The position numbers were made by a program, and so were the translations under genes. This document shows, piece after piece, positions 1,098 through 56,332 of a stretch of DNA of 64,000 bases. Numbering within the stretch: position 1 is the stretch's first letter; every line of letters begins with the position of its first letter. Source of the DNA: a virus; the IMG/VR virus record IMGVR_UViG_3300020193_000004, positions 51,145 through 115,144 of that record; one strand, 5' to 3'. The notes beneath the pieces were generated by a model. The model worked only from the letters and a program-made list of their open reading frames with translations. It was not told the DNA's origin and searched no databases.

Positions 1098-1508
1098 TCA
1101 GAGCTCCCAGACGTAGTTCGGGTCCTTCAGCTTAGCCTGTACCTCACTGACGGACATGTCGCCGATGGCCTTGTCGAGGCCTGCGTCGGTCTTTGCAGAA
1201 GTGGCGTTCATCTTCTTGGCACGCTCGAGGACCTGCTGCATGCGTTCCTTGGGATCTGCAATCGCGGGCTTCACCGTGACCTTGATGTCGGGCGTAGGCA
1301 ATGCAGCCGCGAGGCTTGAGGTTCCAGTCCTCGACCGCAGGGTGTGGCGCGCAAGGAGGCCGCCACCGGCCAGCAGGCCAACGGCACCCAGGCCTGTGGC
1401 GACTGGATGCCTCTTCCAGAACGGCCGATCGCCCTCGTGCTCCTCGTCCCCGACCTTCTCGAGAGCGAGGGCGTACACGTCGTAGACTTCTGCGGCTGTT
1501 TTGAACAT
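1098..1508 (-). CDS. Small putative head/cargo protein with MFKTA leader and one hydrophobic helix
   Basis: MFKTAAEVYDVYALALEKVG; VATGLGAVGLLAGGGLLA; GGAG upstream. Confidence 0.75.
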   Translation of the reverse strand: MFKTAAEVYDVYALALEKVGDEEHEGDRPFWKRHPVATGLGAVGLLAGGGLLARHTLRSRTGTSSLAAALPTPDIKVTVKPAIADPKERMQQVLERAKKMNATSAKTDAGLDKAIGDMSVSEVQAKLKDPNYVWEL

Positions 1509-21546: not shown

Positions 21547-23457
21547 CTACCAGTAGGCAAGGTGGAGAAGAAGGGAGGAGATCAAGTTCGGGGCATCCGC
21601 GGTCTTGTCACTGAAGAGAGTAGCAGACCTGGACATCGCGGGCACATAACTCCAATCGGGTGGACGCGTCATCAGCCCCGTCCGATAGTCGTTGTACTGC
21701 TGCGAGATCTGGTCAAGAAGCGGGTCGGAAAGCAGTGTACTGACTCCGCCGTCCTGCGGAGCGGGACACATCGTAATGCGGATCGCGACGGCCCTGGGTG
21801 CGAACGACCGCCCGAGAAGCACCGGGCCGAGTGCGCTCACGAGTCGAGAGATCGTGTCGCCGCGCAAGGCACCAGGCAGCCACCGCGGCTCGTGGTAGGG
21901 GTCGAGCGGCGTACGCTCGAAGCAGCTGCCCTCCGCAGCCAGCTCCTGCGCCCTGGCCGACTGCCCCATGGAGCTCAACGAGCAGTACTGGAACTCCTCT
22001 GGGCGGAGAACGACCCCGAGGGCGCCCAGGTGCGACAGCATGTCGTGCATGCTGGAGGGGCCAGCACCGCACTCGTCGTAGATCTCACGAGGCAGCACCG
22101 GGACCAGGCGCCCCATGTGATCCCTCAGCAGCGCCCGCTGGTGCTCGCTCGGAGCCGGAATCCGCTTCACGAGCTCCGCCCACTTGGCCAGAGAGCCCAG
22201 CTTCTCCCCGACCGGCAGCGCATTCATGCGGCTGGTAAGCAAAGCGATCGCGCGGTCCTGCTGCGCAGGCGTGACCGAGGCAGCGTGCAGATCTTGCCCG
22301 CTCCGCCCCTCCCAGAACCGCTGCTCCTCGTCCGTGATCGTACGGTCTCGCACGCCGGCGCGACGTCGCAACGTCTCCTGCGCGTGCTCCATCGCCTTCG
22401 CCTCGGCGTCCGAACGCGCGGCAGGGAGCGCGGACAGCACACTGGCAATGTTCGCGCCGACGCGGGACTCCGCGGGACCGCGCACGCGGGAGTTGAGGAC
22501 ATTGGCAACTGCGTTCCCGAGACGCGCATGCCGTTCGTCGAGCGGCAGGAGAGGCGCGTCGGCCGAGACCTCACGAGTCGAGAGACCAATACCGCCGGGG
22601 GCGAAGAGCCTCTCCGTGTACGGGCGGTTCCCGCGTACCCTGGAGGTAACGTTCGCCATCACCTTCGCCGATCGCTCCGCACCGATGAAGACGTAGGAGT
22701 CGTCGAAGAAGCGCGGGTAGTCGTTGTAGACGCCGCACATCCTCCCGTCGGGGAGGATGGCGCGCATCCCGAACGGAGGAAGCGCCCCGCGCACGACGTG
22801 CTCGCAGTAGTGCTCGGGCGACCGCGCGTAGTGGTTGCAGATCGAGCAGCGGTCGTAAGGCACCTTCGCGCCCATCGAGGTGTCCGGGAACTCCCCCGCG
22901 GCGATCCGATCGTAGAGGTCGACCGCACCCAGGCGAACGCAGAGGTCCCGTACCAGCTCCGAGACGAGGACGACCCGACGCATCCGCGCATCCCAGAACG
23001 CCCCGAGGATGTACCCGTAGGCGCGCTCCGGGTCCTTGTTCACGTGGTGGCGGAAACGGTGCGCGTTGTAGAAGGTCGGGTACCCCCACGCGAGGGAGCC
23101 CCAGTCTTTGACGGTCTCCGTGGTGCTGGCAGCTCGCCGACGTCCCTCGATGTCCCAGACCGGGATCGTGTCCCAGCCCGGCGGCGTGTGGAGCAGCCCG
23201 CGCTCGGTGAACCAGTCGCCCCGGAGGTTGAAGCCAACGAACTCCCCTGCGCCGAGAGCGGAGTTCACCAGGTAGAGCCGCCCCGGCTGGGGCTGGATCG
23301 ACTCGATGAGCTCGAGGACTTCGGGCAGGTGCTCGCCACTCGCGACCTTGTCCAGTCCCGCGGACGTACCCAGGCCGTAGCCGGTGCTCGGCTCGACCAG
23401 GTGGATGAGAGGACGGCCCTCGGCCGTCTTCCCGTGGAGCTGGAAGTGCTTGTCCAT
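21547..23457 (-). CDS. Putative prohead (capsid maturation) serine protease with Zn-finger insertion
   Basis: FRHHVNKDP...G.I; TSMGAKVPYDRCSICNH...CEH; DSYVFIGAE resembling S-x-V-x-x-P-A; lies upstream of scaffold-like and capsid genes. Confidence 0.65.
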   Translation of the reverse strand: MDKHFQLHGKTAEGRPLIHLVEPSTGYGLGTSAGLDKVASGEHLPEVLELIESIQPQPGRLYLVNSALGAGEFVGFNLRGDWFTERGLLHTPPGWDTIPVWDIEGRRRAASTTETVKDWGSLAWGYPTFYNAHRFRHHVNKDPERAYGYILGAFWDARMRRVVLVSELVRDLCVRLGAVDLYDRIAAGEFPDTSMGAKVPYDRCSICNHYARSPEHYCEHVVRGALPPFGMRAILPDGRMCGVYNDYPRFFDDSYVFIGAERSAKVMANVTSRVRGNRPYTERLFAPGGIGLSTREVSADAPLLPLDERHARLGNAVANVLNSRVRGPAESRVGANIASVLSALPAARSDAEAKAMEHAQETLRRRAGVRDRTITDEEQRFWEGRSGQDLHAASVTPAQQDRAIALLTSRMNALPVGEKLGSLAKWAELVKRIPAPSEHQRALLRDHMGRLVPVLPREIYDECGAGPSSMHDMLSHLGALGVVLRPEEFQYCSLSSMGQSARAQELAAEGSCFERTPLDPYHEPRWLPGALRGDTISRLVSALGPVLLGRSFAPRAVAIRITMCPAPQDGGVSTLLSDPLLDQISQQYNDYRTGLMTRPPDWSYVPAMSRSATLFSDKTADAPNLISSLLLHLAYW

Positions 23458-34585: not shown

Positions 34586-34783
34586 TCACGCAAGCGCGCG
34601 GCCCAGCGCAATGCCTCCCACGCCCGAGATCCCGCCGATCCCGGCCCCCGTGAGGGCGCCGCGGAGGCGGTGCCCCTTCTCCTCCGTGGCGGCCCCGTAC
34701 GCGGCACCGGCGAGTGCACCGAGTCCGCCGAAGGTGGCGGCCGCGCGCACCGGGTTCACTCCCGCACTGGCGGTCTTGAACAT
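34586..34783 (-). CDS. 65-aa glycine-zipper peptide with MFKTAS leader
   Basis: GAGGAGG RBS; MFKTASAGVNPVRAAATFGGLGALAGAAYGAATEEKGHRLRGALTGAGIGGISGVGGIALG. Confidence 0.7.
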   Translation of the reverse strand: MFKTASAGVNPVRAAATFGGLGALAGAAYGAATEEKGHRLRGALTGAGIGGISGVGGIALGRALA

Positions 34784-38154: not shown

Positions 38155-41100
38155 CAGCGACCTCCCAGGGTCGGCTGCGGCGCGGGCTCGGGGTTGCGCT
38201 TCTTGAGGAAGTGACGGATGCCAAGAGCCCCGGCAGCCCCAGCAGCCGCGACCCCAGCCCCGAGCACGGCATTGCGCCTGGTCAGGTGCCTGGCGAACCC
38301 ACCTGCAGCAGGCGCCGCCGCGTGCGCGGCCTCCGCAACAACCGGGGCCGCGTGCGACGCCGCCGCTGCCGGCACAGGCGTGTGAACGGGCGCAGGCGTG
38401 TGCACGGGTGCTGCAGGCGGTGGTACCGGCTTCGGAGGTGCTGCTGCAGGCGCAGACGGTGCTGCAGGTGCAACGTCGGAGATCTGCGGGGTCGCAGCCG
38501 GCTGCCGACTGTGGACACGGTCCTGGAGCTTCTGGTATCGATCGGCCACGCGGTTCAGACGCTGCGCCTTGTCAGCATCGCCTGCGGCAGCAGCGGCGGC
38601 GGCGTGTGCACGTAGCTCCTTCGCGCTACCTGTTAGCTCCCTCGCGGAAATGACCGTCTTGCCCCTCCGGACTTGCGCGGCACCCGCATCCGCGGCCTGC
38701 TGCACCGCTGGTGCGTGAGAGATCTGCGGGGTCGCAGCGGCTGGCGTCGGTGCAGCCGGTCGAGGTGCCGTGGGCTCCGCGGTCCAATGTCCGTCATAGG
38801 CAGCCGCGATGTCCTGACCCGTGTTGATGTGCGCCGGAGAAGGGTTCTTCTTTACATGCTCCCCCCACTCGTTCACAGCTCGAGAGACCTGTGCACGCCG
38901 AGCCTCCTGCGCAGCGTTGTGCTGTGCCGCCGCCTGCGCCTCCTGCGCTGCTTGTGCCTGCTGCGCACGCGCCAGCTGCGCCGGGGCCAGCCTCTGCGAG
39001 TTCTCTACGGCAACCGCAGGCGCCTGGGCCGCACGACGGGCCGCTTCCCGTGCCTGCAGCTCTGCTCCGGTGAGCGCCTCCTTCACGAAGAAGGCACGGA
39101 TGCTCGCCATCTTGGATGCTTCGGACATGGGCGCCCCACAGCTCGAGCAGTGACCGGTGTTCCCGACAGTACCCGTACCGCAGTACGCGCACTTGTACTT
39201 CTGCGGGGCGGCCGGGGACGACGACGACGACGAGCGGTCGCCGTAGTGGTGGTGCTCCGTCCGTGCAGGACGAAGCGCGTTGGAGATGACCGCGGCCTGG
39301 AGAGCATGCCGGTGGCGCCGCTCCTCGCCAGCGACGCCCTCGATCGCATGCCGGATCGCCTGGTGTGCCTCGTCCCTCTCCGCCGCCGGTCCTGCGGTGT
39401 TGACTCGCTTCCACTTTGCGATGGCCGCGTCATCGGATGCCTTCATGCCCCCGCCGATGAGCGCGCCGCCGAGACCGCCCACCACAGCCCCCAGCGCGGC
39501 CCCGCGGAGCCCGTGCCCGCGCCCGCCGTGCATTCCTGCGAGAGCTCCCGTGAGGAGGCCGAGTCCACCGCCGACACCCCCGCCGGTCGTCAGCGCGGTA
39601 CCGAGATCAGTCTGCTTTTCCTTCGCCTTCTTCCTGCCGTAGTCGATGACCGCCTTCTCCCGATCACCTTGGCTGACTGCGGCAGAGGCGAGGTAGTCAC
39701 GTCCGGGGTGGCTGGCTCCGAAGACCGCGGCGCCCTTCTCGCCAGCGGGCATCGCCGGTGACATCGGCATGGGCTGCGCTGCCGGGACCGTCTGTGGGTC
39801 CGGAGCGGTCGGTGCGGGCTGCATCGCATCGGCGATCTGGGGAACTGGTTGTTCCTGCGTGGCGGCAGGCGGGGCCGCCGCGGACGGATCGCGCTGCTTG
39901 AGTAGGTACTGGTTCGTCTCGTGCGTGCTCGCGATGCCCATCAGCAGGTCGTCGATCCCAAGGGAGAGCCCGCCGCCCTGGTCGAGGGAGCTGTAGGCCT
40001 CGAACAGGGTTGCCTGGAGCTCTCCCTCAGCGATGAGCGCCGCCTCGAAGATGCTGCCCGCGCCCTGCATCCACTGCTGGGAGCGGGCGGAGGCCTCGGC
40101 GAAGATCGTGCCGGGGTCCAGGCTCTGGTTGCCACCGTGCCCGACGATGCGCTCCGCCACGCTGTCGAACTCCTCCCGCACACCCTCGTACAGGCGCGTG
40201 AAGAGCTGGTGGTCTGAGTACGACGCCTCGCCCTGGCTGGTCCAGTGGGCGAAGTAGTAGAGCTGGTGGAGCGCGAAGAGCGTCGAGAGTACGGGGGCCA
40301 GTGAGGATGCGACGGCGTCCGGCACGGGGGTCGGGGTGTGCTCGGCGGCCTTCTCCGGCCCAGCTTCTCGAAGACGCTCCTCGATCCGCCCCAGTCGAGA
40401 CTTCAAGCCTGACCTGAACCCATAGTGTCCCGCGGCCGCACCCAGTGCCATCGAGCCGAGAGCGATCGGAAGGTCTGCCGCGCCAAGACGCGGACCGAAG
40501 TGAGAGGCGATGCCCATCCCCAAGGCGCCTCCCGCAGCCCCCGGAAGCGTCGCCGTGCGGCTCGCGAGCTGCTGCTCGACACGCTCCTTCTCGGCCAGCA
40601 GCTCCTCGCGCGTCATGGAGCCTACGAGTCTCGGCGTACCTACAAGTGCCGGCCCCCCGACCTTGGTGGCGGCACCAGCCAGCGGGATGGGCGCCGCGCT
40701 GATCTTGTTGAGGCCCATCGCCGGCTCGGTGACGCGGCCGAAGCCGTTGCGCTGCTGGTAGGGCGGGTAGAGCGAGTCCAGCAGCCCGGGCGAGCTCGGC
40801 ATGCTGGTGGCGTCGGTGTCGAAGATCGCCGGGTTCAGCATGGCCTGCTGGATGCGCTCCTCGGTCAGCGGGTAGACCTGGCCGCCCGCCTCGAAGATGT
40901 AGAACTTCTGAAGGCGGCGGTTCTCCACGACGATGGGGATGCGGAGGACGTTGCCCGCGTTCGGGAGGTTGTCCTGGGGGCGCGACATCGTGCGGTTCTG
41001 GACCTGCGCGTAGCCCAGCGCGCCGCCGGCCTCGGGGTCCATCCGGTCGAGGACGATCTCGATGTCGTACCGCGTGAGGAAGGGGTTCTCCTTCTGCAGC

Positions 41101-41222
41101 TCGGAGAAGATGTGCGCGGGCCACTTCTTCTCGTCGTCCGGCATACGCGAGATCGCCGACGCGACCTTCGTGGCGAAGAGGTCGTCGGAGGTCTTGAGCT
41201 GGATCAGAAGGGGTTCATGCAT
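38154..41222 (-). CDS. Large modular head protein with Dps/ferritin-like domain, Gly zippers and Zn-ribbon
   Basis: AHWTSQGEASYSDHQLFTRLYE...DSVAERI; CAYC...CSSC; KVAS, KISA, KAAE, KGAA, KMAS, KEAL. Confidence 0.75.
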   Translation of the reverse strand: MHEPLLIQLKTSDDLFATKVASAISRMPDDEKKWPAHIFSELQKENPFLTRYDIEIVLDRMDPEAGGALGYAQVQNRTMSRPQDNLPNAGNVLRIPIVVENRRLQKFYIFEAGGQVYPLTEERIQQAMLNPAIFDTDATSMPSSPGLLDSLYPPYQQRNGFGRVTEPAMGLNKISAAPIPLAGAATKVGGPALVGTPRLVGSMTREELLAEKERVEQQLASRTATLPGAAGGALGMGIASHFGPRLGAADLPIALGSMALGAAAGHYGFRSGLKSRLGRIEERLREAGPEKAAEHTPTPVPDAVASSLAPVLSTLFALHQLYYFAHWTSQGEASYSDHQLFTRLYEGVREEFDSVAERIVGHGGNQSLDPGTIFAEASARSQQWMQGAGSIFEAALIAEGELQATLFEAYSSLDQGGGLSLGIDDLLMGIASTHETNQYLLKQRDPSAAAPPAATQEQPVPQIADAMQPAPTAPDPQTVPAAQPMPMSPAMPAGEKGAAVFGASHPGRDYLASAAVSQGDREKAVIDYGRKKAKEKQTDLGTALTTGGGVGGGLGLLTGALAGMHGGRGHGLRGAALGAVVGGLGGALIGGGMKASDDAAIAKWKRVNTAGPAAERDEAHQAIRHAIEGVAGEERRHRHALQAAVISNALRPARTEHHHYGDRSSSSSSPAAPQKYKCAYCGTGTVGNTGHCSSCGAPMSEASKMASIRAFFVKEALTGAELQAREAARRAAQAPAVAVENSQRLAPAQLARAQQAQAAQEAQAAAQHNAAQEARRAQVSRAVNEWGEHVKKNPSPAHINTGQDIAAAYDGHWTAEPTAPRPAAPTPAAATPQISHAPAVQQAADAGAAQVRRGKTVISARELTGSAKELRAHAAAAAAAGDADKAQRLNRVADRYQKLQDRVHSRQPAATPQISDVAPAAPSAPAAAPPKPVPPPAAPVHTPAPVHTPVPAAAASHAAPVVAEAAHAAAPAAGGFARHLTRRNAVLGAGVAAAGAAGALGIRHFLKKRNPEPAPQPTLGGR

Positions 41223-42385: not shown

Positions 42386-43729
42386 CTATACCATGTAGTC
42401 GATCTGGACGGTCTGCCCGGCGGGGATAGACGCGCCCCACTCGATCTTCGTGGCGCCGCCCTCCTCGATCACGCGGTACTCGTCGATGCTGGCCGGGACG
42501 CCCGTGACGAACCTGGCACGCTGCCCGTTGCGGAAGGCATGGATACCCGGGTAGTGTGCGGCGGGGACCACGTTCACCAGCGCGTGCTTCGTGGCGTTGC
42601 CGCCGTCCAGCGACTCGGCCTTCGCGCGGGCACCGATCTTGGCGAGGGTCACGGCGTCGTTGGCGAGGTCGCCGGTCGCGATGGCACCAGCCGCGAACTT
42701 ACCCGCGCCGATGGTGCTCGAGGCGATCTTATCGTTCGTGATCGCGAGGTTGCGAATGTGGTTCGTGGTCACGGCGCGGTCGGCATCGGTAGCCACGCTG
42801 TCCTTCAGCTTGCCCGCGTCCACCGCGTCATCCGCGATGTCAGCCGTGGCAATGCTGCCCGCAGCGTACTTCCCGGCGCTGACGCCGCCGTTGGCGATCT
42901 TCGCGCCGCTCACGGCAGAGTCGGCCATGTCGGCGTTGGCGATGCTACCCGCCGCGTACTTCCCGGCCACGACCGCGCCGTTCGCGATCTTCGTGGACGA
43001 GATCGCGGAGTCCTTGACGTGGTTCGTGGACACGGCGCGGGCGGAGTCATCGGCAGCGGAGGACGAGAGCTTGGCGCTGGTGACGGCGTCGGCGGCCAGG
43101 AGGCTGGTGACGATCTGCCCGGCGGCGAGCTGCGCGGCCGACTTGTCAACCATGGCGACGGTCGCGTCATCCCAGACCGGCATGTCGTTCAGGTCGAAAA
43201 TCTGCGCGTAGGCGAAGACGAACGGCGATGCCATCGTGTAGGCGATCTCGGTCCCGCTGCCGAACTCGCCGCTGAAGAAGCGGAGGGTGTAGCTGCCCGC
43301 CGTGGTGCGGGCGGAACAGGAGATCACGCCCCAGACCTCGCGACCGACGCTGTCCACGATGGCATCGCCGCTCGCGTCCATGATGGGCACCTTGCTGCTG
43401 CGGGCGCGAGCGTTCGCACCGACCTTGCCGGTCGTGGTGTTGAACTCGTTGCCGTTCGCCGCTTCCAGGAGAGCATCCTTGCCCTTGGCGACACCCTCGG
43501 GGTCCACGCCCGCGGCGCTGTCGAAGCCCAGCAGGGTCTTGACGTTCATCGTGCTTGCGGAAGGGCTCGCCTGCTCCGCGACCTGGACCCAGCGGCCCAC
43601 CAGCTTCGACTGGAGTGCGCTGGCCTTCGCGTCGGCGGCGAGCTTGGCGCCCGTGATGGAGGCGTCGGCGAGTTTGCTGGTGGTGACGCTGCTGTCGGTG
43701 TACTGGTCGGTGACAAACTGGAGAGGCAC
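42386..43729 (-). CDS. Fibre-like structural protein with AVTxxK[IL]A repeats
   Basis: Repeated SVTTSKLAD, ITGAKLAA, AVTSAKL, AISSTKIA, AITNDKIA; C-terminal FRNGQR beta module. Confidence 0.65.
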   Translation of the reverse strand: MPLQFVTDQYTDSSVTTSKLADASITGAKLAADAKASALQSKLVGRWVQVAEQASPSASTMNVKTLLGFDSAAGVDPEGVAKGKDALLEAANGNEFNTTTGKVGANARARSSKVPIMDASGDAIVDSVGREVWGVISCSARTTAGSYTLRFFSGEFGSGTEIAYTMASPFVFAYAQIFDLNDMPVWDDATVAMVDKSAAQLAAGQIVTSLLAADAVTSAKLSSSAADDSARAVSTNHVKDSAISSTKIANGAVVAGKYAAGSIANADMADSAVSGAKIANGGVSAGKYAAGSIATADIADDAVDAGKLKDSVATDADRAVTTNHIRNLAITNDKIASSTIGAGKFAAGAIATGDLANDAVTLAKIGARAKAESLDGGNATKHALVNVVPAAHYPGIHAFRNGQRARFVTGVPASIDEYRVIEEGGATKIEWGASIPAGQTVQIDYMV

Positions 43730-45712: not shown

Positions 45713-46072
45713 CTACTGCTGGCGCCGCGGTGCGGTCATGCGGCCGGCGAGGACGCCCGCGCCTCCGGCACCGATCATGCCGGCGCCAGCGAGCCCCGCG
45801 ACGCCCGCGGCCGTGCCGGGGTTCGCCGCGATGCCCCTGCCGAGGTTGCGCACGCCCTGGCCCGCTTCGTGGAGCCACGTCGTGCCCCGCGTAGGAACCC
45901 CCTGGCTCGCCTGGTACGCCGTGCGCTGCATCGCACCGCCGAGGCGCCCAACCTGGTGTCCCACCCACTTTGCACCGCTGGTGACGGCCTCGCCGACGGG
46001 CGCGAAGCTGATGGCCTCCTTGTCGAAACCCGCTTCCTTGTAGATCTCGTAGACGTGGGCGACCTTGTTCAT
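45713..46072 (-). CDS. Small Gly-zipper protein with KVAHVYEIY leader
   Basis: MNKVAHVYEIYKEAGFDKEA; AAGVAGLAGAGMIGAGGAGVLAG. Confidence 0.7.
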   Translation of the reverse strand: MNKVAHVYEIYKEAGFDKEAISFAPVGEAVTSGAKWVGHQVGRLGGAMQRTAYQASQGVPTRGTTWLHEAGQGVRNLGRGIAANPGTAAGVAGLAGAGMIGAGGAGVLAGRMTAPRRQQ

Positions 46073-49000
46073 CGACGTACTCCAGCGGCGGGTGAGGGTG
46101 CAGAGATAGCACGCGGCGGGCGTGTTCCGAACTCCGCTCCGTGCGCGAGCCCCGGGATCGGGTGCTCGTGGATGTTGGACTTCCAGCCCTGGGCGGCACC
46201 CTCGGTGTAGGTGTCCTTCAGGCGCTGGTAGTTGAGGCGCGCCATCCAGTCCTCGGTGCCGCTGAGCGGGACCTGGGTCATGGCGCGGAGCACCGGTGCG
46301 TGCGAGACCGTCTCGTGCCCTTCGGCTTCGGCCTCCGCGTTGTGCGCCTCGACGGCAGACAGCGGCACGACCTCGCCGCGACGGAACGGGCTGGCGTGCG
46401 GGGCATCGTGGATCTCGGCGAGGTTCGTCATCCCCCGCACGACGGTCTCGATGTTCCGCTGCCGCACCATCCCCTGGTAGGCTGTGGCCACCTCGTCCGT
46501 GATGTAGTTCCGGACGCGCCCGATGCTCTTCGTGTGGTGCAGCAGCTCGTGTGGATCCGTGGGGCCCGTGGAGAGCGCATCGCCGCGATGGACGCGAGCG
46601 CCGACCTTCACATGCTCGAGCAGGTGCCCGGTCACCACGCGGTGGGGCTTGCCTTCAATGACCACGGTGAATCCGCCGAGGGCGTCCGTGGAGATCTTCT
46701 CGACCACGCCTCCGACCGTGGCCAGGGTGGCGCGGTCCGGGAGCTTGTCCGGCAGCATGAACAGCTGCTTCACGCGCTTGAAGGAGTCGACAGCGGTCTT
46801 TGCCCCCGAGACGCCTCCCGTGTGGAAGGTCTTCATCGTGAGCTGGGTGATCGGCTCACCGAGCGCCTGGCCTGCGATGACCCCGATGTTCGTCCCGACG
46901 GCGTGCAGGGCCCCGCGCTCCGAGTGCCCATAGCACTTCGCACAGATGCCGCGCGGCATCCGGCAGAACAGCGGGGAGCGCGCCACTACCTCCTGCACAC
47001 CAGCGTTCCGCAGCTGAGAGACCAGCGCCGGCGTCACGAGAGTGCCCGCGGGGATGGCATGGCCGTCCGGGAGCTTGACGTCGGTGGCGAGGAAGCGGTC
47101 GACCAGGTCCACTGCGCCCACGCTGACCGTCTTGCCGGCCGTGGCCCCGCAATCTTCGCCCGTGATCTGGATGCCCATCGTGGTGTTCACGATGTCCTTC
47201 GTCACGGCACCAGGCTCCTTGGTGCCCTGCGCGCGGTCGATGGTGCCCTTGCGAGCACCGTGCATCGACGCCCAGTACTCGGAGACAGACAGTCCCTCAC
47301 CGAAGGACTTGGTGATGGGGACCGGCACGGGACGCTTCATCAGGTCGTCGACGAGGATGGGGGCGACGGTCAGCTGCGAGAACTGCCCCCAGTTGCCGCG
47401 CGCACCGGCCTGCGCCCACTCCCACACGCGGTTGTCACCCTGGTTGTAGCGGACCACCCCGAGCTGCTTCAGCTCGGCCTGTGCGTCCTGGTAGAGCTTG
47501 ACGATCTCCTGGTCACGCTTCCGGCTCGACATCGGCGTGGCGTGCAGCTTCTTCTCCTGCTCCCGGTACTTCTTCAGGACCTGGTCGCGGAACGCCGCGC
47601 CGTCGTGGAAGTCGTCGATCGAGAAGGAGCTCCCGTTCTTGAACGACATGGTGTTGCCCAGGTCCTTCCACGCATCGACGACGTGCGGGAAGGCCTGCTC
47701 GTGCTCCTTGCCAACGCGCGTGAGTAGCGCCTTCAGCCGCCCCGAGTCGAGGCGGAACGCGGGGTCGTGCAGGAGCTGCTCATGCTTCGCCATCTCGCCG
47801 GGAAGGTGCGCGGCCAAGGCCAGTCGACCGGGAGTCGTCTTCTTCCCATCGACCGTGATCACGTCCGACGGCTTCAGCTTCCCGTCGTGCATCATCTGGA
47901 CGGCCCGCTCGGCCGTGAGACCGGCGGGGGTCTTCGCCTCTTCGCCCCACTTGGTAGACTGGAAGAGCCCAAGCAGGGAGTCCTGATCGGGCACCGTCAT
48001 GAGTCCATAGGTAGTGGGCGAGAACAGGTTCTTGGAAGGGAGGACCTTCCGGGCCTCGTCGACCGCCTGCGGAGAGACGGGCACGTAGAGGGCCATCGTG
48101 TCGCCGTCGAAGTCCGCGTTGAAGCCCTTGGTCACCAGTGGGTGGATCTTGATGGCGCTGCCGTCCACGATCTTCGGGTTGAACGCCATGATGCTGAACT
48201 TGTGCAGGCCGGGGTCGCGCTTGAGGAACACCGGGTGGTCCGCGACGGCGCGCTCGAGTGCCGCGAGGACCTGAGGGTGGTCCCGCTTCTCGGTGGCCCA
48301 CTTGAGCGCGTCGATGTGCGTCTTCCCGCCCCGCACGAGCTCGCGGATCACGAAGGGCTTGTACATCTCCATAAGGATCGGGCGCGGGACTCCGACCTCG
48401 TCGAGCCCAAGCGTCGGCTCAGGGACGATCGTCGAGCGTCCGGAGAGATCCTGGCGCCGCGCAAGCACACCCTCCTGGAAGAAGCTCTCCTTCGGAGCCC
48501 CGCGATCCTCCGTCTTCCCGGAGAGGAGCTCCATGAGCCCCTGCATGTGCCGCGGCTTGCCGGTGCCTGCGGGAGAGGTCATGCCCTCGACACGGAGCGC
48601 CCTGATGCTGTTGTAGAGCTCAGCGCGTGCCTTCTGGGCCCCGGCGTGCGTCGACGACTTGTCGAGGTTCTTGAGGATGCCGTTGTTGTACCCGACGTTC
48701 AGGTACAAGGGATTCCGGTCGTCGGTCACTTGCTTGCCGTCGAGCCCGATGGACACGCGACGCACCGCGGGCGGCAGCACGGGCAGGTGCTGGTTCGTGT
48801 AGGCCTCGAGGGGCGACATGTCGTGCGCCTTGAGGGCCTCGAGGTACCGGATCTTCTTGAGCCCGCGGTTCAGATCGGTCCTGCTCGCCGTGGCCAGCTT
48901 CGCCTGCTCCGCCTTCAGTTCCTTGTCCACGTCGATGGCGGACAGCCGCGCGTTGATGATGTGGAACCCTGACTTCCCGCCGACCAGCCCCTTCTCGCTG

Positions 49001-49278
49001 GTGAGCATGTCGTATTCCTTCTTCGTCAGGCCCGTCAGGTTCTGGATGGCCCCCTCGAAGATGGGGTTCGGCATGCGCTCGGCGAGCGTCACGTGGCTCC
49101 AGAACTTGCCCTGGAGGCCGCCCGTGACGCGCGGGTCGAACAGGCCGCCCGACTCTTCGACGGTCCGCGCCCCGCGAGCGACGGTCTGCTTCTCCGGGAG
49201 CCGGATCTCTCCGTTCGAGATGCCGTGGATGCCGCGCTTCGTGTCGCCCAGCAGGTGCGCGTCCGTCATCGGCATCAT
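46069..49278 (-). CDS. Phage multisubunit RNA polymerase, beta'-like subunit
   Basis: FNADFDGD catalytic motif; LPVLPP, R.D.SGRS.I, R.P.LH, HGARKG, GEPITQLTMKTFHTGG, RSPLFC...CAKCYG. Confidence 0.95.
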   Translation of the reverse strand: MMPMTDAHLLGDTKRGIHGISNGEIRLPEKQTVARGARTVEESGGLFDPRVTGGLQGKFWSHVTLAERMPNPIFEGAIQNLTGLTKKEYDMLTSEKGLVGGKSGFHIINARLSAIDVDKELKAEQAKLATASRTDLNRGLKKIRYLEALKAHDMSPLEAYTNQHLPVLPPAVRRVSIGLDGKQVTDDRNPLYLNVGYNNGILKNLDKSSTHAGAQKARAELYNSIRALRVEGMTSPAGTGKPRHMQGLMELLSGKTEDRGAPKESFFQEGVLARRQDLSGRSTIVPEPTLGLDEVGVPRPILMEMYKPFVIRELVRGGKTHIDALKWATEKRDHPQVLAALERAVADHPVFLKRDPGLHKFSIMAFNPKIVDGSAIKIHPLVTKGFNADFDGDTMALYVPVSPQAVDEARKVLPSKNLFSPTTYGLMTVPDQDSLLGLFQSTKWGEEAKTPAGLTAERAVQMMHDGKLKPSDVITVDGKKTTPGRLALAAHLPGEMAKHEQLLHDPAFRLDSGRLKALLTRVGKEHEQAFPHVVDAWKDLGNTMSFKNGSSFSIDDFHDGAAFRDQVLKKYREQEKKLHATPMSSRKRDQEIVKLYQDAQAELKQLGVVRYNQGDNRVWEWAQAGARGNWGQFSQLTVAPILVDDLMKRPVPVPITKSFGEGLSVSEYWASMHGARKGTIDRAQGTKEPGAVTKDIVNTTMGIQITGEDCGATAGKTVSVGAVDLVDRFLATDVKLPDGHAIPAGTLVTPALVSQLRNAGVQEVVARSPLFCRMPRGICAKCYGHSERGALHAVGTNIGVIAGQALGEPITQLTMKTFHTGGVSGAKTAVDSFKRVKQLFMLPDKLPDRATLATVGGVVEKISTDALGGFTVVIEGKPHRVVTGHLLEHVKVGARVHRGDALSTGPTDPHELLHHTKSIGRVRNYITDEVATAYQGMVRQRNIETVVRGMTNLAEIHDAPHASPFRRGEVVPLSAVEAHNAEAEAEGHETVSHAPVLRAMTQVPLSGTEDWMARLNYQRLKDTYTEGAAQGWKSNIHEHPIPGLAHGAEFGTRPPRAISAPSPAAGVRR

Positions 49279-52200
49279 GACGTATCGTCGCCACGCTTCT
49301 CGGTGTTCACCCCCATGGCGCGTAGGTAGTGCTGGAAGTTGGTCATCCCACGCGAGGGCTGCGGCGGCGGGAGCGGACTCCCGGAGATCACGGCGGCCCA
49401 GGCGGCGTGCTGGTCCCCGTCGCTCTTGAAGGTGTAGGCCTCCCGGAGGTTCTGGTTCGCACCGTGCGCGAGCATCGCGTACGTCGTGAGCATGTCCATC
49501 TTCTGCCCGCCGCCAGGGACGCCGGAGCCCTTCGGGGCCTCCCCGGAGTGCGTGTAGCCGGTCGCGAAGGACCGACCGGTCATCTTCTTCTCGACCTGGT
49601 GATGCAGCTGCATCATGTACTGCTTGCCGACCATCACCTGCCCGACCGAGCGTCCGGTCTCCGGGTCGATGAGCTCTTCCGTATCGGAGAGCCCGTACCG
49701 TGCCAGATCCCGCTTGACCTGCGCGGCGTAGTCGACGCCGGGCACGAAGTTCTCCACGACGTAGGGCTTGCCGGTCTTGTCCGCGATCTTCGACGCGGCC
49801 GTCTCGAGCACCTGCCCCACGTTCATACGGCTGGGCACGCCCGCGGGGTTCAGGAGGACCTCGACGTGCTGCCCGTCCTTCGTGTGGGGCATCTGGGAGT
49901 CGGGGACGATGCGGCTGATGATGCCCTTGTTGCCGTGCCGCCCCGCCATCTTGTCACCGATCTCGAGCGGCTTGGACGTCTTCACGTGGACCGCGATCTG
50001 GCGCCGGTTCAGAGTCTCGTTGACGATGATCTTGACTACGGTCCCGGAGTACGGGTGGTCCCACAGGAGCGACACGTCCTTGTAGGGCTTCGCGAGGGAC
50101 TTGTGGATGCGCGCAGCGATCTTGTCGTCCTCGCTCATCTGCTTCGGGCTGAGGACGGCCACGAGGATGTCGCCGGTGTGTACAGGCGTCCCCTCCTTCA
50201 CGATCCCGCGGTCGTCGAGCTTGGCCAGGTGCTCCGGCGAAGCCGCGGCAGGGGTCGCGTAGTCCGCCCAGCGCGCCTTCGACCCGCCGGTGCCGCCGAG
50301 CATGCTCGCGTAGACCGTGATCTCCGAGACGTGCAGGTGGTCCGACGCCATCTTCTGCGCGGCGGACTCGGACACGACGATCCCGTCCTCGAAGGTCAGA
50401 CCCTTCCACGGGATGTAGGCCACCCGCAGATTGGCCCCCATCGCGAGCGCGCCGCCCTTCGTGTAGTTCGTGTCCGCGAGCAGCGTGCCCTTCTGTACGG
50501 TGTCGCCCGCCTTCACGAGCGGTGCAGCGTGGAGCGAGTTCTTCCCCCCGTTCAGCGGGAAGTGGTTGTAGACCGGGACCGCCACGGAGCCCGTGGGCGT
50601 CTGGACATGGATGGCGCCCGGCTCCACCTTCCTGACCACGCCGGCCACGGGCGACGTGTGCGAGACGAAGGAGCCCACAACCTGCTCGAAGGTCTGGGCG
50701 CCGTCCGTCTTCACCTGCACGAGCGGAGCTTCCCGGTGCACCAGTGCGAGCGCCTGCTCCTGCTGCTTGGCAGCCATCATGGCGCGGTTGCCGTTGTCGT
50801 TCTGGAGGAACGGGATGAGGTTCGCACTGAAGGAGAGCAGGGCCTTCGACGACGGGAGCACGTACCGGACCTTCGCCCAGGGACGCTTCGACGTGCGACG
50901 CTCCTCGTCGTAGCAGACGACCTCGTTCGACACCGGCTCGGGCATGCCCCGCACCCAGCGCACCTGGTCCGGGTAGGCCACGATGGCGTGCTCGAGGTCC
51001 GCCGGCGAGGCCAAGATCATCTTCCCCGTCTTCGTGTCGAAGACCTTTGTGCGTAGGTCCTGGCCGGAAGACGTCTTGCTCTTCGAGCCCTCGCGCACGT
51101 CGGCACGCGACATGTGGATCCCCAGGGGCAGGTTCAGCGCGATCCCGGTGTCCTCTCCCTCTGGGGTCTGGATCGGATCGATGAACCCAAGGTGCGTGGG
51201 GTTCAGTTCCTTGTCGGGGTCGAGGTTGATCTTGTCACTGCCGACGCCGCCAAAGTCCTTGCCGCGGATCGTCGTCCGCATGTGCCCCGAGAGGAACTGG
51301 AGCGGGTTGGTCTGGTCGGGCCGCTGCGCGTGGGCGAACGGTGCCAGGACGACCTTGTTGTAGGTGTTCGGCGACATGATCTGGTCGATGCCGTACTCGG
51401 GCTTGTCGATCCGGTCGCGCACCTGGCGCCGCAGCAGCGTCTCGTGATGGCGGATGGCCTCCACGACGAAGTCCTCGGTCGTGGTCAGGTACTTGGCCGA
51501 CAGCGCCTGTCGATCATCGGGGAGCTCGGACGGCGGCGGGTCTTCCTTCGTGCGTCCCTTCTGGATGTCCAGGAGCCGGCGCGAGGATGCGAGGAGGTTC
51601 TCGCCGTTGACGTTGGAGGACTCCCTGCCGAACGCCGACTTCATCGCGTCTGGCCAGACCTCGGTCTCCCTGTCGAAGTACTCGCGGACGCGCTGGGCAC
51701 GCGCCTGCGGCGTCCCGTGCGACCGGTCCTCGAGGCGCAGCCCGAGCGCTGCGAAGAGCTTGTCCACGTCCTTGTCGAGGTGGACCGCCTTCGTGTTGGC
51801 GGCGTAGACGGCGTTCCCCCAGGCGTGCTCGATCTCCGCATCCGTGACACCGAGTGTGCGAAGCACGGAGTAGAGCGGCAGGTTCGAGGTCCCCACCGAG
51901 AATGTCATCTTGCCGGCCTTGGGTTCGTAGCCGATGTCGAACCCGCGGCCGCGCGCCAGGTTCCAGCGCCCCTGGAGGTCGCCGTTGCCCGCAATGCGGT
52001 GGTAGGGGCGGGGCTTCGAGCGGAAGACGCTGTCGTGCTGTCGCTCCTGCCCCTCGATGATGTAGGAGTACCGGCGCGTCATCTTCGGGAGGCGTGCGAG
52101 CGTGACGAGCTTCTCCTCCACGAGGGCACCGCTCGTCTTGTCAACGAGACGCAGTCGTGCCCGGACCGGCACGCCCCAGGTCATACCGGTCGTCCGCGCG

Positions 52201-52385
52201 CGGAACTGCTCCTCAAGGTTGTCGACGTGATGGATGTCGGAGGAGATGGCCGCGCGGTCGTCGAAGACGATCTCAGCCAGCTCCAGCCGCCGCCGCGCCC
52301 CCTCGAACGGGAACTGCGCGCGGATCGCCTCGGCGGCGCGCTCCTTGAGACTCTCGAAAGCGGCTTCTGGGTTAAGGTTCGGCAT
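49275..52385 (-). CDS. Phage multisubunit RNA polymerase, beta-like subunit
   Basis: LPKMT, DPIQTPEG..G, LIPFLQNDNGNRAMM...Q.QA, G.TFEDG, GDKMAGRHGNKG, LNPAGVPSRMNVGQ, GGQK; start moved to MPNLNP (52385). Confidence 0.95.
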   Translation of the reverse strand: MPNLNPEAAFESLKERAAEAIRAQFPFEGARRRLELAEIVFDDRAAISSDIHHVDNLEEQFRARTTGMTWGVPVRARLRLVDKTSGALVEEKLVTLARLPKMTRRYSYIIEGQERQHDSVFRSKPRPYHRIAGNGDLQGRWNLARGRGFDIGYEPKAGKMTFSVGTSNLPLYSVLRTLGVTDAEIEHAWGNAVYAANTKAVHLDKDVDKLFAALGLRLEDRSHGTPQARAQRVREYFDRETEVWPDAMKSAFGRESSNVNGENLLASSRRLLDIQKGRTKEDPPPSELPDDRQALSAKYLTTTEDFVVEAIRHHETLLRRQVRDRIDKPEYGIDQIMSPNTYNKVVLAPFAHAQRPDQTNPLQFLSGHMRTTIRGKDFGGVGSDKINLDPDKELNPTHLGFIDPIQTPEGEDTGIALNLPLGIHMSRADVREGSKSKTSSGQDLRTKVFDTKTGKMILASPADLEHAIVAYPDQVRWVRGMPEPVSNEVVCYDEERRTSKRPWAKVRYVLPSSKALLSFSANLIPFLQNDNGNRAMMAAKQQEQALALVHREAPLVQVKTDGAQTFEQVVGSFVSHTSPVAGVVRKVEPGAIHVQTPTGSVAVPVYNHFPLNGGKNSLHAAPLVKAGDTVQKGTLLADTNYTKGGALAMGANLRVAYIPWKGLTFEDGIVVSESAAQKMASDHLHVSEITVYASMLGGTGGSKARWADYATPAAASPEHLAKLDDRGIVKEGTPVHTGDILVAVLSPKQMSEDDKIAARIHKSLAKPYKDVSLLWDHPYSGTVVKIIVNETLNRRQIAVHVKTSKPLEIGDKMAGRHGNKGIISRIVPDSQMPHTKDGQHVEVLLNPAGVPSRMNVGQVLETAASKIADKTGKPYVVENFVPGVDYAAQVKRDLARYGLSDTEELIDPETGRSVGQVMVGKQYMMQLHHQVEKKMTGRSFATGYTHSGEAPKGSGVPGGGQKMDMLTTYAMLAHGANQNLREAYTFKSDGDQHAAWAAVISGSPLPPPQPSRGMTNFQHYLRAMGVNTEKRGDDTS

Positions 52386-52410
52386 CTGTGAAGAGCGCTC
52401 CACTACTGGC

Positions 52411-52416
52411 CATAAG
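52411..52416 (+). promoter_or_regulatory. CATAAG candidate promoter element
   Basis: Divergent gap upstream of a plus-strand island. Confidence 0.45.
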
Positions 52417-52436
52417 AGCCATGACGGAGGTAGCCT

Positions 52437-52688
52437 GTGACTCAAAGTTCTACCACGCCCCGGAAGCGCGCGCTGCATGACAAGACGGCGGGGGCGCACC
52501 GGTCCACCCTGTCAGAGTTCGCGAGTTTGGTACACCAGATGGTATCGGGGCCGATGGCCCAGGAGGATGTCGTAGATGAGCACGCTCGAGTGGATGCTCC
52601 TGTTCGCCTTCATCAGCGGGGTGGCCACCGGCCTCGCGGAGTACGGGGCCGGGCTGTTGCCGCGGATTGGAAGGAAGAGACGGAGTAG
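52437..52688 (+). CDS. Hypothetical protein (an overlapping 40-aa hydrophobic ORF at 52576-52698 is an alternative)
   Basis: GGAG upstream of GTG; reading frame ambiguous. Confidence 0.35.
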   Translation: MTQSSTTPRKRALHDKTAGAHRSTLSEFASLVHQMVSGPMAQEDVVDEHARVDAPVRLHQRGGHRPRGVRGRAVAADWKEETE

Positions 52689-53153: not shown

Positions 53154-53360
53154 ATGGTGGACAGCCTGATGACGTGGATGTGGTTCTTCACGACCGGACC
53201 CATCTCGACCATAAGAACAGTTTTGAGAGCTATGAGGCGGCCGCCTCATCAGGAGGGACCGCCGCCTCATCAGGAGGGACCGCCGCCTCATCAGGAGGGA
53301 CCGCCGCCTCATCAGGAGGGACCGCCGCCTCATCAGGAGGGACCGCCGCCTCATCAGTAG
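53154..53360 (+). CDS. Small ORF ending in (PPPHQEG)n
   Basis: AGGAGG RBS and upstream TATAAG; the C-terminal half is the tandem repeat. Confidence 0.45.
   Translation: MVDSLMTWMWFFTTGPISTIRTVLRAMRRPPHQEGPPPHQEGPPPHQEGPPPHQEGPPPHQEGPPPHQ
53240..53357 (+). repeat. Perfect 21-bp tandem repeat GCCGCCTCATCAGGAGGGACC, 5.6 copies, overlapping an 18-bp palindrome (53232-53249)
   Basis: Seen directly. Confidence 0.95.
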
Positions 53361-54193
53361 AGGCTGCGCAGCGCGGCGCGCAGCGCGCCACCTGCGCGGG
53401 AGGCCTCTCCCCTAAGATAGCGGGATGTCCTTGATGCCTCCCCAGCGATTCGGCTGGGGAGGCTCGGGGCCTGCATGTGCTGGAAGAAATGCTCGGCGTT
53501 CGCCGCCGCTGCCTGTGGTGACATGCCGTGGTGCGAAACCAGGCGGGCCTGCACTTTCTTAGCAGTCGAAGAACCGAAGCGCTCCGAACGCGCAAGGGCC
53601 GCGCGATCGACCGCGGAGGACTCGGGGCGCAGCCGATCGAGATCCGCGTGCAGTCCGTCCCTTTTCAGCTTCATCCCGGAGAGATGGTGCTCCCGCCCGG
53701 AAATAAGTCCGCCCCCGTATCCGTGCTCCTTCCCCTTCATGACACCGCGCAGGCGTGTCACCTGGCCCTCCCGCTCGGGACGTTCCATGTGTGCCCCGAT
53801 GTCCATCAGCTGGTGGTGCCCCTCTCCAAGGTTCATCAAACCGCGGTGTGCGCGCGCACCGGAAAGGGGACTTCCCTTGGTGGCGATGGACTTGGCGATA
53901 TCGTGCACTGCCAAGTCCTGTTTCTGCGCGACATTCTTGCCGACCATCGATCGCGTCTGCGACCCGGGAAAGGAGTGCAAGGGATCCGTATGTGGCAGCC
54001 ACGGATGACGAATGCCGCTATCCACCTTCAGGGCGCCGCGCTGGATCGTAGACGCGACCGCTGGCGACGGAGCGCCGCTACCCACTGACTTCGCCGCGAT
54101 GTCTGCGAGCTGCGCGTGCTCCTCGTTTCCATAAGCCAGCTTCTCGTAGGCAAGAGCGTAAGTATCGTAGACAGCAGAGGCAGTCTTGAACAT
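53354..54193 (-). CDS. MFKTA-leader protein with Zn-dependent phospholipase C/P1 nuclease/Het-C-like domain
   Basis: EKLA followed by YGNEEH; GALKVD; DPLH; LGEGHHQLMDIGAH. Confidence 0.55.
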   Translation of the reverse strand: MFKTASAVYDTYALAYEKLAYGNEEHAQLADIAAKSVGSGAPSPAVASTIQRGALKVDSGIRHPWLPHTDPLHSFPGSQTRSMVGKNVAQKQDLAVHDIAKSIATKGSPLSGARAHRGLMNLGEGHHQLMDIGAHMERPEREGQVTRLRGVMKGKEHGYGGGLISGREHHLSGMKLKRDGLHADLDRLRPESSAVDRAALARSERFGSSTAKKVQARLVSHHGMSPQAAAANAEHFFQHMQAPSLPSRIAGEASRTSRYLRGEASRAGGALRAALRSLY

Positions 54194-56332
54194 TTAACCT
54201 CCCACTGCCCGGCTTGCGTCGACCTGCGCACCGGACCGTGGCGTGATGGGGGACTTGAGCGGGTCTAACGGGTTCCGCGCCGAGCCGCTGCTGTTCAGCA
54301 GCTGGATGACCATCTGGTAGAGCTGCGGGCTCTCCATCTGCAGCTTATTGAGCTCCTGGTACATCAGCTGCTCGCCGCCGGGCTGCTGCTTCAGCGTGTT
54401 CATGTAGGCAGCGACACGCTGGGCGACGTAGCGCATGTCGAAGCCGCCCTGTCCCATCTGCAGCGTGGACTCGAGACCCGCCATCGGGGTAGGCCCTCGG
54501 GATGCGTTGGGGGTCGCCGCGTTCTCGTCGTAGAGCGTTGCCCCCTCGGGCACCCCCGGGGTCTGCTGCACGGCGTCCTGCCCAGGTGCACCCGCGGGTG
54601 CACCTGGCGCTGCTCCGGGGGCTGCCTCGGGCTGCTGCGCACCTGCTGCTGGATCGCCAGCTGCGGGAGCACCGCTGGCTGCCGCTGCCGCCGGATCGCC
54701 CGCAGGCGCGGCACCGGGGACCATCCCCATGGCCGCCTGCTCCTGCTGGATGTCCATCTGCGTGGAGGCCTGCGCCTTCATCGTGATCTCGGTCGCCTTG
54801 GCCTGGTACCGCGACGTACGGAGCATTGCGGCGCCCTGGATGTCGGCAGACGCGAGCTGCGTGGCGCGCTGGGTCGTGACCTGCTTCCGCATCTCGGCGG
54901 TGAGCCGCGCCTGCTCGGTGTCGAAGTCCTCGCCGATCTCCTCGAGCAGACGCTGGTCGGAGACCTTGCTCGCCTGGTTGAGCTGGAAGTAGAACATCGC
55001 CCGCTGCAGGTCGTCCGCCATGCGGAACTTCTCGAAGCGGAAGGGGATGCGCGGCCACCCCATGTGGGAGGCGACTTTGTCGATGACAAAGCGCGTGAGG
55101 TTGTACCGCTCCTTGTTGTAGCCCAGGAAGGTGTTTTCGAGAGCGCGCAGCGAGGTATTGGAGCTCGACCACTGCAAGCCGCCGTAGACGAACTCTACGG
55201 GGATGCCTGCGCCCGCCAGCATCGCCTCGGCGTGAATGCGGAACTCCTGGTGCAGGATGAGCGCCTTCGCCTGCCCGCCGATCTGCTGGTACCCGATGTT
55301 CATCGGGAGGATCGGGATGTAGTTATGGTCCCGCTTCCACATCGCCATCTCGACCTCGACCTTCTGCTTCCAGTTGACGAGGTTGTACGCGCCGAAGGGT
55401 CCATCGTTGCCGCCGGTGGTGGGCCCGGGGAAGATGATGCGCAGGGGAACGACGTGTTCGAGAAGCAGACTCTCCTGGGCCTTCTTCATGACCTGCATGT
55501 AGAAGGCGTCCTTGAGGAGCGGGAAGATCAGCGGCATCCCCCAGCCCTGGTCCTTCTGGGCGATGGTGGGGCGCTTCAGGTGGAAGAAGTTGTCGGGGTG
55601 GAACAGGAGCGCGCGGTTCGTGCGCGCCGCCTCGAGGAACTGGTAGGGGAGGGTCTCGATCGTCTCGGGGTCGCCGAGCCGGACATCGTTGACGACGCTC
55701 CTCGGCAGGCGGAAGTAGTACCGGCTGTTGCCGGTGATCTCGTTGTACTTGATCTCGATGTTCTCGGGGTTCCAGCGGACGAGGCGGGCCCCTCGCGCGT
55801 TGCGCGGGTAGTTGTCGGCCTGGTCGGCGTAATCCTCGACAGCGCACTTCGGGCAGTGCAGGTAGAACCGGCCCCCGCGCCACTTGTAGCGGCTCCGGTT
55901 CTTCGAGGCACGCACCCGCTCCTGGCAGTGTCTGCAGATGAGGTACTTCTCCAGCTGGAAGAAGACGCTGGCGAAGGCGTTGCCGTAGACGAAGTAGTCC
56001 AGGCCGATCTCGACCTGGAACTGCCGCAGCTTCAACTGCTCCTCGAGGTCGAGGTACAGCTTCCCGAGCTGGTCGTCGTCTGTCTCCCAGACCAGCGGCG
56101 TCACCGGGTACTCCGCCATCTTCTGGCAGGCGACGTTGATCACCGGGTTCGTGAGGAAGTAGTACCGACACCAGGTGTGCAGCTGGTGGACGTTCTCGGG
56201 GAGGAACTGTTGAGCGACGTCGAAGAACGGAGACGGGTAGCGGACGCCGTACCCGCGGCTCGTCCAGTAGGACGTGGCCTGGCGCGGGGTGAAGCGGCTG
56301 GCGTCGCCGCCGAGGACACCGATGCTCATCAC
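54194..56332 (-). CDS. Portal protein with Zn-finger insertion and low-complexity C-terminal linker
   Basis: CRYYFLTNPVIN..CQKMAEYP; IGLDYFVYGNAF; FFHLKRP....GWG.P; AGIPVEFVYGG. Confidence 0.8.
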   Translation of the reverse strand: MMSIGVLGGDASRFTPRQATSYWTSRGYGVRYPSPFFDVAQQFLPENVHQLHTWCRYYFLTNPVINVACQKMAEYPVTPLVWETDDDQLGKLYLDLEEQLKLRQFQVEIGLDYFVYGNAFASVFFQLEKYLICRHCQERVRASKNRSRYKWRGGRFYLHCPKCAVEDYADQADNYPRNARGARLVRWNPENIEIKYNEITGNSRYYFRLPRSVVNDVRLGDPETIETLPYQFLEAARTNRALLFHPDNFFHLKRPTIAQKDQGWGMPLIFPLLKDAFYMQVMKKAQESLLLEHVVPLRIIFPGPTTGGNDGPFGAYNLVNWKQKVEVEMAMWKRDHNYIPILPMNIGYQQIGGQAKALILHQEFRIHAEAMLAGAGIPVEFVYGGLQWSSSNTSLRALENTFLGYNKERYNLTRFVIDKVASHMGWPRIPFRFEKFRMADDLQRAMFYFQLNQASKVSDQRLLEEIGEDFDTEQARLTAEMRKQVTTQRATQLASADIQGAAMLRTSRYQAKATEITMKAQASTQMDIQQEQAAMGMVPGAAPAGDPAAAAASGAPAAGDPAAGAQQPEAAPGAAPGAPAGAPGQDAVQQTPGVPEGATLYDENAATPNASRGPTPMAGLESTLQMGQGGFDMRYVAQRVAAYMNTLKQQPGGEQLMYQELNKLQMESPQLYQMVIQLLNSSGSARNPLDPLKSPITPRSGAQVDASRAVGG

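Follow-up and report, generated by a model that had tools for sequence, protein, structure and literature searches.

A putative phage zymogen of the zinc phospholipase C/S1-P1 nuclease superfamily, with a K-x-A motif directly before its predicted metal-binding N-terminus

Introduction

How could a phage protein that carries no signal peptide come to expose, as its first residue, the amino acid whose free amino group is needed to complete a catalytic metal site? This question is raised by P0001, an open reading frame (ORF) of 279 codons plus stop on the minus strand (53354..54193; ATG at 54193-54191, stop codon at 53356-53354) of a 64,000-nucleotide stretch of virus DNA, IMG/VR record IMGVR_UViG_3300020193_000004, positions 51,145 to 115,144 (“the window”). 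The record is a phage genome of 115 kb with 66% G+C, estimated to be ~66% complete, and the window is its right-hand 64 kb. An earlier reading of the letters alone (the original prediction) had described the product as an enzyme of the zinc phospholipase C (PLC)/P1/Het-C type whose active N-terminus would be created by cleavage after a K-x-A motif. Here we report that P0001 very probably belongs to the Zn-dependent PLC/S1-P1 nuclease/Het-C superfamily, as the predicted pro-form of a metallo-phosphoesterase, and that it is probably active only after a head protease has removed its 20-residue leader.

In this superfamily the first residue of the mature chain binds one metal through its amino group and its carbonyl; the alpha-amino group is a ligand in the solved members, and one extra residue inactivates the enzyme (PMC10576769, PMC5201275, PMC11705217). 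The known members reach this state by different routes: S1 nuclease begins at Trp21 once its signal peptide has been removed (PMC5201275), while the PC-PLC of Listeria loses a 26-residue propeptide to the protease Mpl, and in that enzyme a W1F variant is still active, whereas one residue added before W1 kills activity (PMC10576769).

Results

The P0001 family and its conserved residues

The P0001 product begins with MFKTASAVYDTYALAYEKLA, followed directly by YGNEEH, and further on carries VD(58), H73 and LGEGHHQLMDIGAH, which includes H127, D131 and H135; the coordinates, length of 279 residues and layout of motifs (YGNEEH after the leader, VD, a His and H...D...H) were all as the original prediction had given them. 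With 17 close homologues (E 1e-145 to 1e-49) and relatives that form 64 clusters at 50% identity, all of them from metagenomic phages, the ORF is real and not a chance frame. Sequence searches of Pfam, PHROGs and the PDB returned nothing useful and no above-threshold match to a curated model, and the ESM Atlas gave no usable match. Run over the entire phage record, the Pfam hidden Markov models (HMMs) for PLC and S1-P1 gave no match at E<=10; three family members used as tblastn queries had no counterpart among 50,697 phage records, and a scan of GTDB genomes turned up no prophage copies.

Residue conservation was counted over 79 HMM-aligned family sequences, with identity down to 24%. H26 (70/70), D58 (72/72), H73 (71/71), H127 (73/73), D131 (74/74) and H135 (72/72) do not vary, and H169 (71/72) and D186 (72/73) each vary once. 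Around the proposed cut, K18 is invariant (70/70), position 20 is Ala in 64 sequences, Gly in five and Ser in one, and position 21 is Tyr in 63 and Phe in four of 70; upstream of K18 the relatives vary in both sequence and length.

Fold and superfamily assignment

An AlphaFold model built on an 18-sequence alignment had a predicted local distance difference test score (pLDDT) of 78.8; with 53 sequences this rose to 93.3 (predicted template modelling score 0.89), and residues 1-20 alone were of low confidence. The model is all-alpha, with the PLC/P1 fold that the original prediction had proposed. When it was aligned to all 48,161 PDB representatives, the top six matches were all Zn-PLCs or S1/P1 nucleases: Clostridium absonum alpha-toxin (1olp; score 9.0, further alignment values 156 and 3.7), Bacillus cereus PLC (1ah7; 8.6, 152 and 3.5), Listeria PC-PLC (8cqm; 8.3, 150 and 3.7), SmNuc1 (8qjl; 6.0, 153 and 4.6), S1 nuclease (5fb9; 5.9, 158 and 4.8) and the plant bifunctional nuclease (3w52; 5.8, 151 and 4.7). 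The best unrelated match stands directly below these six at 5.7, and the shallower 18-sequence model gave the identical top three. All six structural alignments begin at model residue 20/21, opposite mature residue 1 (Trp), in keeping with a place for Tyr21 near the predicted metal site. Foldseek found no significant match in the PDB or BFVD, with PLC/alpha-toxin entries recurring at E 0.2-1.

The invariant residues follow the same pattern. The zinc cluster of SmNuc1 is held by Trp27 (main chain), His32, Asp71, His88, His141, Asp145, His151, His175 and Asp179 (PMC11705217), and the family set H26, D58, H73, H127, D131, H135, H169 and D186 matches this in composition and in order (H-D-H-H-D-H-H-D); counted from Tyr21, His stands at positions 6 and 149, exactly as in SmNuc1 counted from Trp27. 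By this comparison Y21-G-N-E-E-H26 (54116..54133, minus strand, as are all the segments of P0001) would be the mature N-terminus, with Y21 corresponding to Trp1 and H26 to His6 of S1/P1 nucleases. D58, R62 and H73 (53975..54022) are the candidate first Asp ligand, complementary basic residue and second His ligand; H127-x3-D131-x3-H135 (53789..53815) lies on one long helix of the model; and E168-H169...D186 (53636..53692) would supply the last His and acidic ligands, with E168 or D186 as candidates for the ninth.

For a profile comparison we collected 28 bacterial S1/P1 nucleases by motif scan, all of them confirmed as PF02265. Local hhalign of the two family profiles gave a weak alignment (score 21.65, P 0.037, probability just 1.4%), and this score was reached by 2/100 block shuffles, while the reversed profile scored 12.35; global alignment was uninformative, so that the local alignment alone can be used. 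It pairs A20-Y21-G22..H26 with the A-W-G..H of S1/P1 nucleases, D58 with the Asp of WAD, R62 with the next Arg and H73 with the His of WHY, and when extended it sets H127/D131 opposite HFVGD, so that five of the eight candidate ligands (H26, D58, H73, H127 and D131) meet their S1/P1 counterparts. A Pfam scan of 53 members (E<=1) gave sub-threshold matches to Zn_dep_PLPC in two of the 53 (E 0.0016) and to Het-C in one (P0052, E 8.5e-4), the latter echoing the Het-C label of the original prediction; both families are in one clan with S1-P1. Ligand order, profile comparison and Pfam leads, each of them weak alone, do not depend on the fold search and concur with its outcome.

P0001 is thus very probably a very divergent, previously undescribed and phage-restricted branch of a known superfamily, and its sequence places it outside both PF02265 and PF00882 proper. 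It differs from the former because it starts Y-G-x-x-E-H rather than W-G-x-x-G-H and carries H-x3-D-x3-H rather than H-F-x-G-D-x-H-Q-P-L-H, and from the latter because its first His is at +6 rather than +14 and its HMM matches fall below the cut-off.

The leader and the proposed cut between A20 and Y21

The leader (residues 1-20, MFKTASAVYDTYALAYEKLA; 54134..54193) is variable among relatives, is the sole low-confidence part of the model and recurs on other small ORFs of the phage; K18-L19-A20 (54134..54142) would be P3-P1 of the cleavage site, with Ala, Gly or Ser at P1. A signal peptide was considered and rejected, the leader being acidic and without a hydrophobic core; therefore another protease would have to free Tyr21.

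Members of the family in which the domain is fused to other modules bear on where the cut would fall. K-x-A-[YF] stands immediately before the PLC/P1-like domain in all fused forms, whatever the upstream module: a LigD 3'-phosphoesterase (P0051), LigD-PE plus a DNA ligase (P0061), InPase plus a C39 peptidase (P0053), LAGLIDADG (P0055) or a DUF6582 module (P0021 and P0080). The sequences that precede K-x-A in these fusions are unrelated to each other, and in P0051 the K-x-[AG] before the domain is the only one in 410 residues. In P0080, from a 123-kb relative (L004 6582-8936), the PLC/P1-like domain closes a 784-residue polyprotein as its C-terminal module, and K-x-A flanks the DUF6582 module as well as each of the spacers. 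The same DUF6582 module forms residues 1-66 of a 929-residue protein of the window, where it ends GKEA|S, and recurs in P0080 between SKIA| and EKKA|.

Leaders are also shared between unrelated proteins of this phage, in the form of MFKTA... and VY[DE]xY leaders. MFKTA... opens three genes (the reversed control pattern gave 0 matches), among them a 65-residue Gly-rich ORF that starts MFKTA|S (34586..34783, minus), and the longer leader MxKxAxxVY[DE]xY...[DE]Kx[AG] is found on three ORFs. A 136-residue ORF (1098..1508, minus) has the same leader as P0001 (MFKTAAEVYDVYALALEKVG) and a 119-residue ORF (45713..46072, minus) a related one (MNKVAHVYEIYKEAGFDKEA). Any likeness of this leader to the capsid-targeting sequence of T4 is an analogy.

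K-x-A as a probable processing signal

Counts of K-x-A against its reversal were compared between unselected late minus-strand genes of the window and the early region of the record. K.A outnumbers A.K in the late genes (139 vs 85, binomial p 4e-4) and not in the early ones (42 vs 46), and the asymmetry is stronger for K.A[SAG] (late 74 vs 26, p 2e-6; early 10 vs 10); R.A against A.R showed no asymmetry in late or early genes. By per-protein shuffles the excess sits in scaffold-like and cargo-like proteins and in the protease candidate, with none in RNA polymerase (RNAP), terminase or tail proteins. A tail-fibre-like protein (phrog_892; 42386-43729, minus) is also K-x-A-rich (11 vs 4.6 expected); the cause may be a repeat rich in Ala and Lys and not a series of cleavage sites.

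Comparison of three phages shows K-x-A sites kept despite variable flanks in the capsid protein (KTA|AESLNF), a scaffold-like protein and a 636-residue protein, so that, at the level of sequence motifs, capsid, scaffold and protease candidate share a putative cleavage site. The 636-residue protein (21547..23457, minus) is the candidate head-maturation protease on the strength of a weak match to phrog_18299 (E 9e-5); PDB sequence and Pfam searches with it gave no match and no domain. It has a K-[TV]-A|S site of its own at residues 37-40, and K-[TV]-A|S-x-E-H is present in ~104/109 of its homologues. Late-gene enrichment, conservation of sites in capsid, scaffold and protease orthologues and the position of the motif at module boundaries together make K-x-A a processing signal that is well supported, statistically and comparatively. 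The cleavage motif of the original prediction has thus turned out to be strand- and module-specific in this clade and to precede Tyr in all fused forms, and its overall reading has held wherever it could be computed, in fold, alignment of Tyr21, ligand set and motif.

Discussion

A proposed mechanism

Taken together, these observations lead us to propose that P0001 is made as an inactive pro-protein, its translation coupled to that of the portal gene, and that the head-maturation protease, which would cut many head and cargo proteins of the clade after K-x-A, cuts it between A20 and Y21. Once exposed, Tyr21 would supply its free amino group and its carbonyl as the last ligands of a trinuclear metal site, the others being H26, D58, H73, H127, D131, H135, H169 and D186 (or E168). 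The leader, common to other small proteins of the phage, would probably also direct P0001 into the prohead, and the active enzyme would ride in the capsid, enter the cell with the DNA and hydrolyze a phosphoester there. To this chain as a whole we give a probability of roughly 60%. Within it, we have good reason to infer that the zymogen is activated only in the mature head. A wider picture is more tentative still, and we hold it at somewhat less than even odds: that in a clade of uncultured phages of ~115-200 kb with their own RNAP a K-x-A head protease frees cargo from polyproteins, and that, since the cut in P0001 makes a metal-binding N-terminus, capsid maturation also serves to switch on the zymogen of an injected trinuclear phosphoesterase, one that on entry could attack nucleic acids of the host, nucleotide-based immune signals or lipids of the membrane.

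Alternatives

The substrate is where the closest competitor to this proposal parts from it. P0001 might be cut after K-x-A and packaged, and yet be a true phospholipase C that acts on the host inner membrane, aiding genome entry or depolarizing the cell, with the zymogen state sparing the membrane of the producer; this is a sub-case of the explanation given above, differing in substrate alone. The higher Z scores to PLCs and the Pfam leads favor phospholipid. Against this, the start Y-G-x-x-E-H, with His at +6, resembles that of S1/P1 enzymes (W-G-x-x-G-H) and not that of PLCs (His at +14), and the Arg conserved at four residues past the first Asp resembles the Arg/Lys found three past the Asp in S1/P1 (PMC11705217); in SmNuc1 the counterpart for comparison with R62 is Arg74 (PMC11705217). 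Fusions of the family to LigD 3'-phosphoesterase and DNA ligase point the same way, though neighboring modules of a polyprotein may be co-delivered without any functional link. On the basis of the start motif, R62 and the ligase and phosphoesterase partners, a nucleic-acid or nucleotide substrate is somewhat more likely than phospholipid, and a genuine phospholipase C seems to us a one-in-four prospect.

More doubtful is the idea that P0001 is an enzyme of the same superfamily that is neither processed nor packaged, a cytoplasmic phosphoesterase that retains its N-terminal 20 residues and in which K18-x-A20-Y21 is internal to the fold or active site (the Lys binding phosphate, for example). 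Several observations do weigh against the proposed cut and toward this idea: K18 varies no more than the catalytic His residues do, the P0001 gene lies ~30 kb away from the main head-gene cluster and Tyr is rare as P1', occurring at 2/102 K-x-A sites, where Ser, Ala and Gly dominate (the 102 sites come from a set of head and cargo proteins partly chosen for K-x-A richness). An unprocessed enzyme would depart from all solved members, in which metal is bound by the alpha-amino group of residue 1 and activity is lost when a single residue is put before it (PMC10576769, PMC5201275, PMC11705217). Further points against it are that residues 1-20 have low confidence in the model although K18 and A20 are invariant, that the fusions have unrelated sequences upstream of K-x-A, and that the motif is enriched and conserved in head proteins. 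Since K at P3 (70/70) is more conserved than residue +1, the pattern is easier to reconcile with a recognition site followed by a ligand of the main chain than with a role for the side chain, and we regard the unprocessed enzyme as unlikely. It is very improbable that P0001 has no catalytic role and is a helical internal head or scaffold-like protein, similar to PLC/P1 just through a common helical arrangement, given five His and three Asp that are invariant down to 24% identity in the exact zinc-ligand order, a fold search with PLC/P1 representatives in all the top places, and recurring Pfam leads that all come from the same clan.

Comparison with known systems

P0001 resembles the S1/P1 nucleases (PF02265; P1, S1, TBN1 and SmNuc1) in its all-alpha fold, in the order of the candidate ligands for a nine-ligand trinuclear site (N-terminus, H, D, H, H, D, H, H and D), in the His at predicted mature position 6, the Gly at 2 and a basic residue soon after the first Asp; like them it would need a mature chain that starts at an aromatic residue, here with Ala preceding it as well. 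Unlike them, it has Tyr rather than Trp at position 1, H-x3-D-x3-H rather than H-x2-G-D-x2-Q-P-L-H and an extra C-terminal helical region of ~60 residues, lacks disulfides, a signal peptide and any significant sequence-model match, and would owe its N-terminus to a phage protease rather than a signal peptidase. From the bacterial Zn-PLCs (PF00882; B. cereus PC-PLC, L. monocytogenes PlcB and the N-domain of clostridial alpha-toxin) it is set apart by its first His at 6 rather than 14, the lack of a secretion signal, its place in a phage virion module and a propeptide that ends in the phage's own K-x-A.

The nearest phage parallels are the internal proteins and Alt of T4 and the ejection proteins of phiKZ and SPN3US, capsid-targeted cargo that the prohead protease processes. 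P0001 has in common with them a short N-terminal leader borne by unrelated proteins and, at the level of sequence motifs, a putative cleavage site shared by capsid, scaffold and protease. Those enzymes are carried in the head and injected, as is proposed for P0001. The motif differs, being K-x-A followed by a small residue rather than L/I-x-E (T4) or A/S/G-x-E (the phiKZ group), and the cut in P0001 would go beyond releasing cargo, in that it would create a catalytic metal ligand. The family also recalls the phage polyvalent proteins (Iyer et al., 2017, PMC5512222), in that its members are found in proteins of several domains, together with modules such as InPase, peptidase, ligase and phosphoesterase, and are encoded beside portal and virion genes. 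The modules here, however, are bounded by a K-x-A motif that is short and conserved, and that paper makes no mention of a domain of the PLC or S1-P1 type (0 occurrences of either term).

The PLC/S1-P1 superfamily thus gains a phage-specific branch that sequence searches of Pfam, PHROGs and the PDB miss, and P0001 would be a first candidate for a virion-borne PLC/P1-type enzyme in phages. If our proposal is correct, the protease that matures the capsid also makes a catalytic N-terminus, so that a dangerous enzyme becomes active only when sealed in the head. The closest precedent for such activation is the propeptide-activated PlcB of Listeria, and it is plausible that the mode of activation in P0001 is new. 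Another precedent for the idea is the phospholipase A2 of parvoviruses, which is hidden in the capsid. Because the cut could be read as a gain of enzyme activity, P0001 would also lend itself to reporting on the K-x-A processing proposed for the clade.

Genomic setting and further observations

The ATG of P0001 directly abuts the TAA stop of an upstream 712-residue ORF and is preceded by GGGAGG, which suggests translational coupling between the two. The upstream ORF (54194..56332, minus) is the portal protein gene, judging from an ESM Atlas feature score of 0.98 to portal clusters and from synteny. Downstream on the same strand lie full-length genes for RNAP beta and beta' (46069-52499), unsplit, of ~1070 residues each and near the portal gene. 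The order portal, P0001 homologue, rpoB, rpoC is retained in a complete 188-kb relative (L003/G001). The nearest cultured match by RNAP (30% identity) is the orphan Salmonella phage Arash, which has the order portal, small ORF, RNAP beta; the P0001 family profile found no member in Arash. In the 188-kb relative beta' matches in two pieces (residues 1-394 and 393-817; L003 12742-16668), and because these are separated by ~1.5 kb its gene may hold an intein or some other insert, which the copy in the window lacks.

A perfect 21-bp tandem repeat (53240-53357; 5.6 copies, unit GCCGCCTCATCAGGAGGGACC, 100% matches) begins at the P0001 stop codon and occupies part of the 850-bp gap before rpoB. The large terminase subunit gene (27576-30662, minus; phrog_675, GpA_ATPase) is split by an intein that carries a LAGLIDADG endonuclease (Intein_splicing, LAGLIDADG_3), and a 1022-residue protein (38154-41222, minus) has a ferritin/Dps-like module (PF00210, E 3e-5; phrog_3636 “DNA binding protein”) and an N-terminal region in common with P0081 of the G002 phage. 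Relatives of the 636-residue protease candidate that are 57-86% identical to it form at least 230 clusters, on contigs of up to 199 kb, and the protein has no Pfam domain of its own; several copies (P0082-P0201) carry inteins (PF14528, PF13403 and PF14890). The phage clade is therefore both large and uncharacterized.
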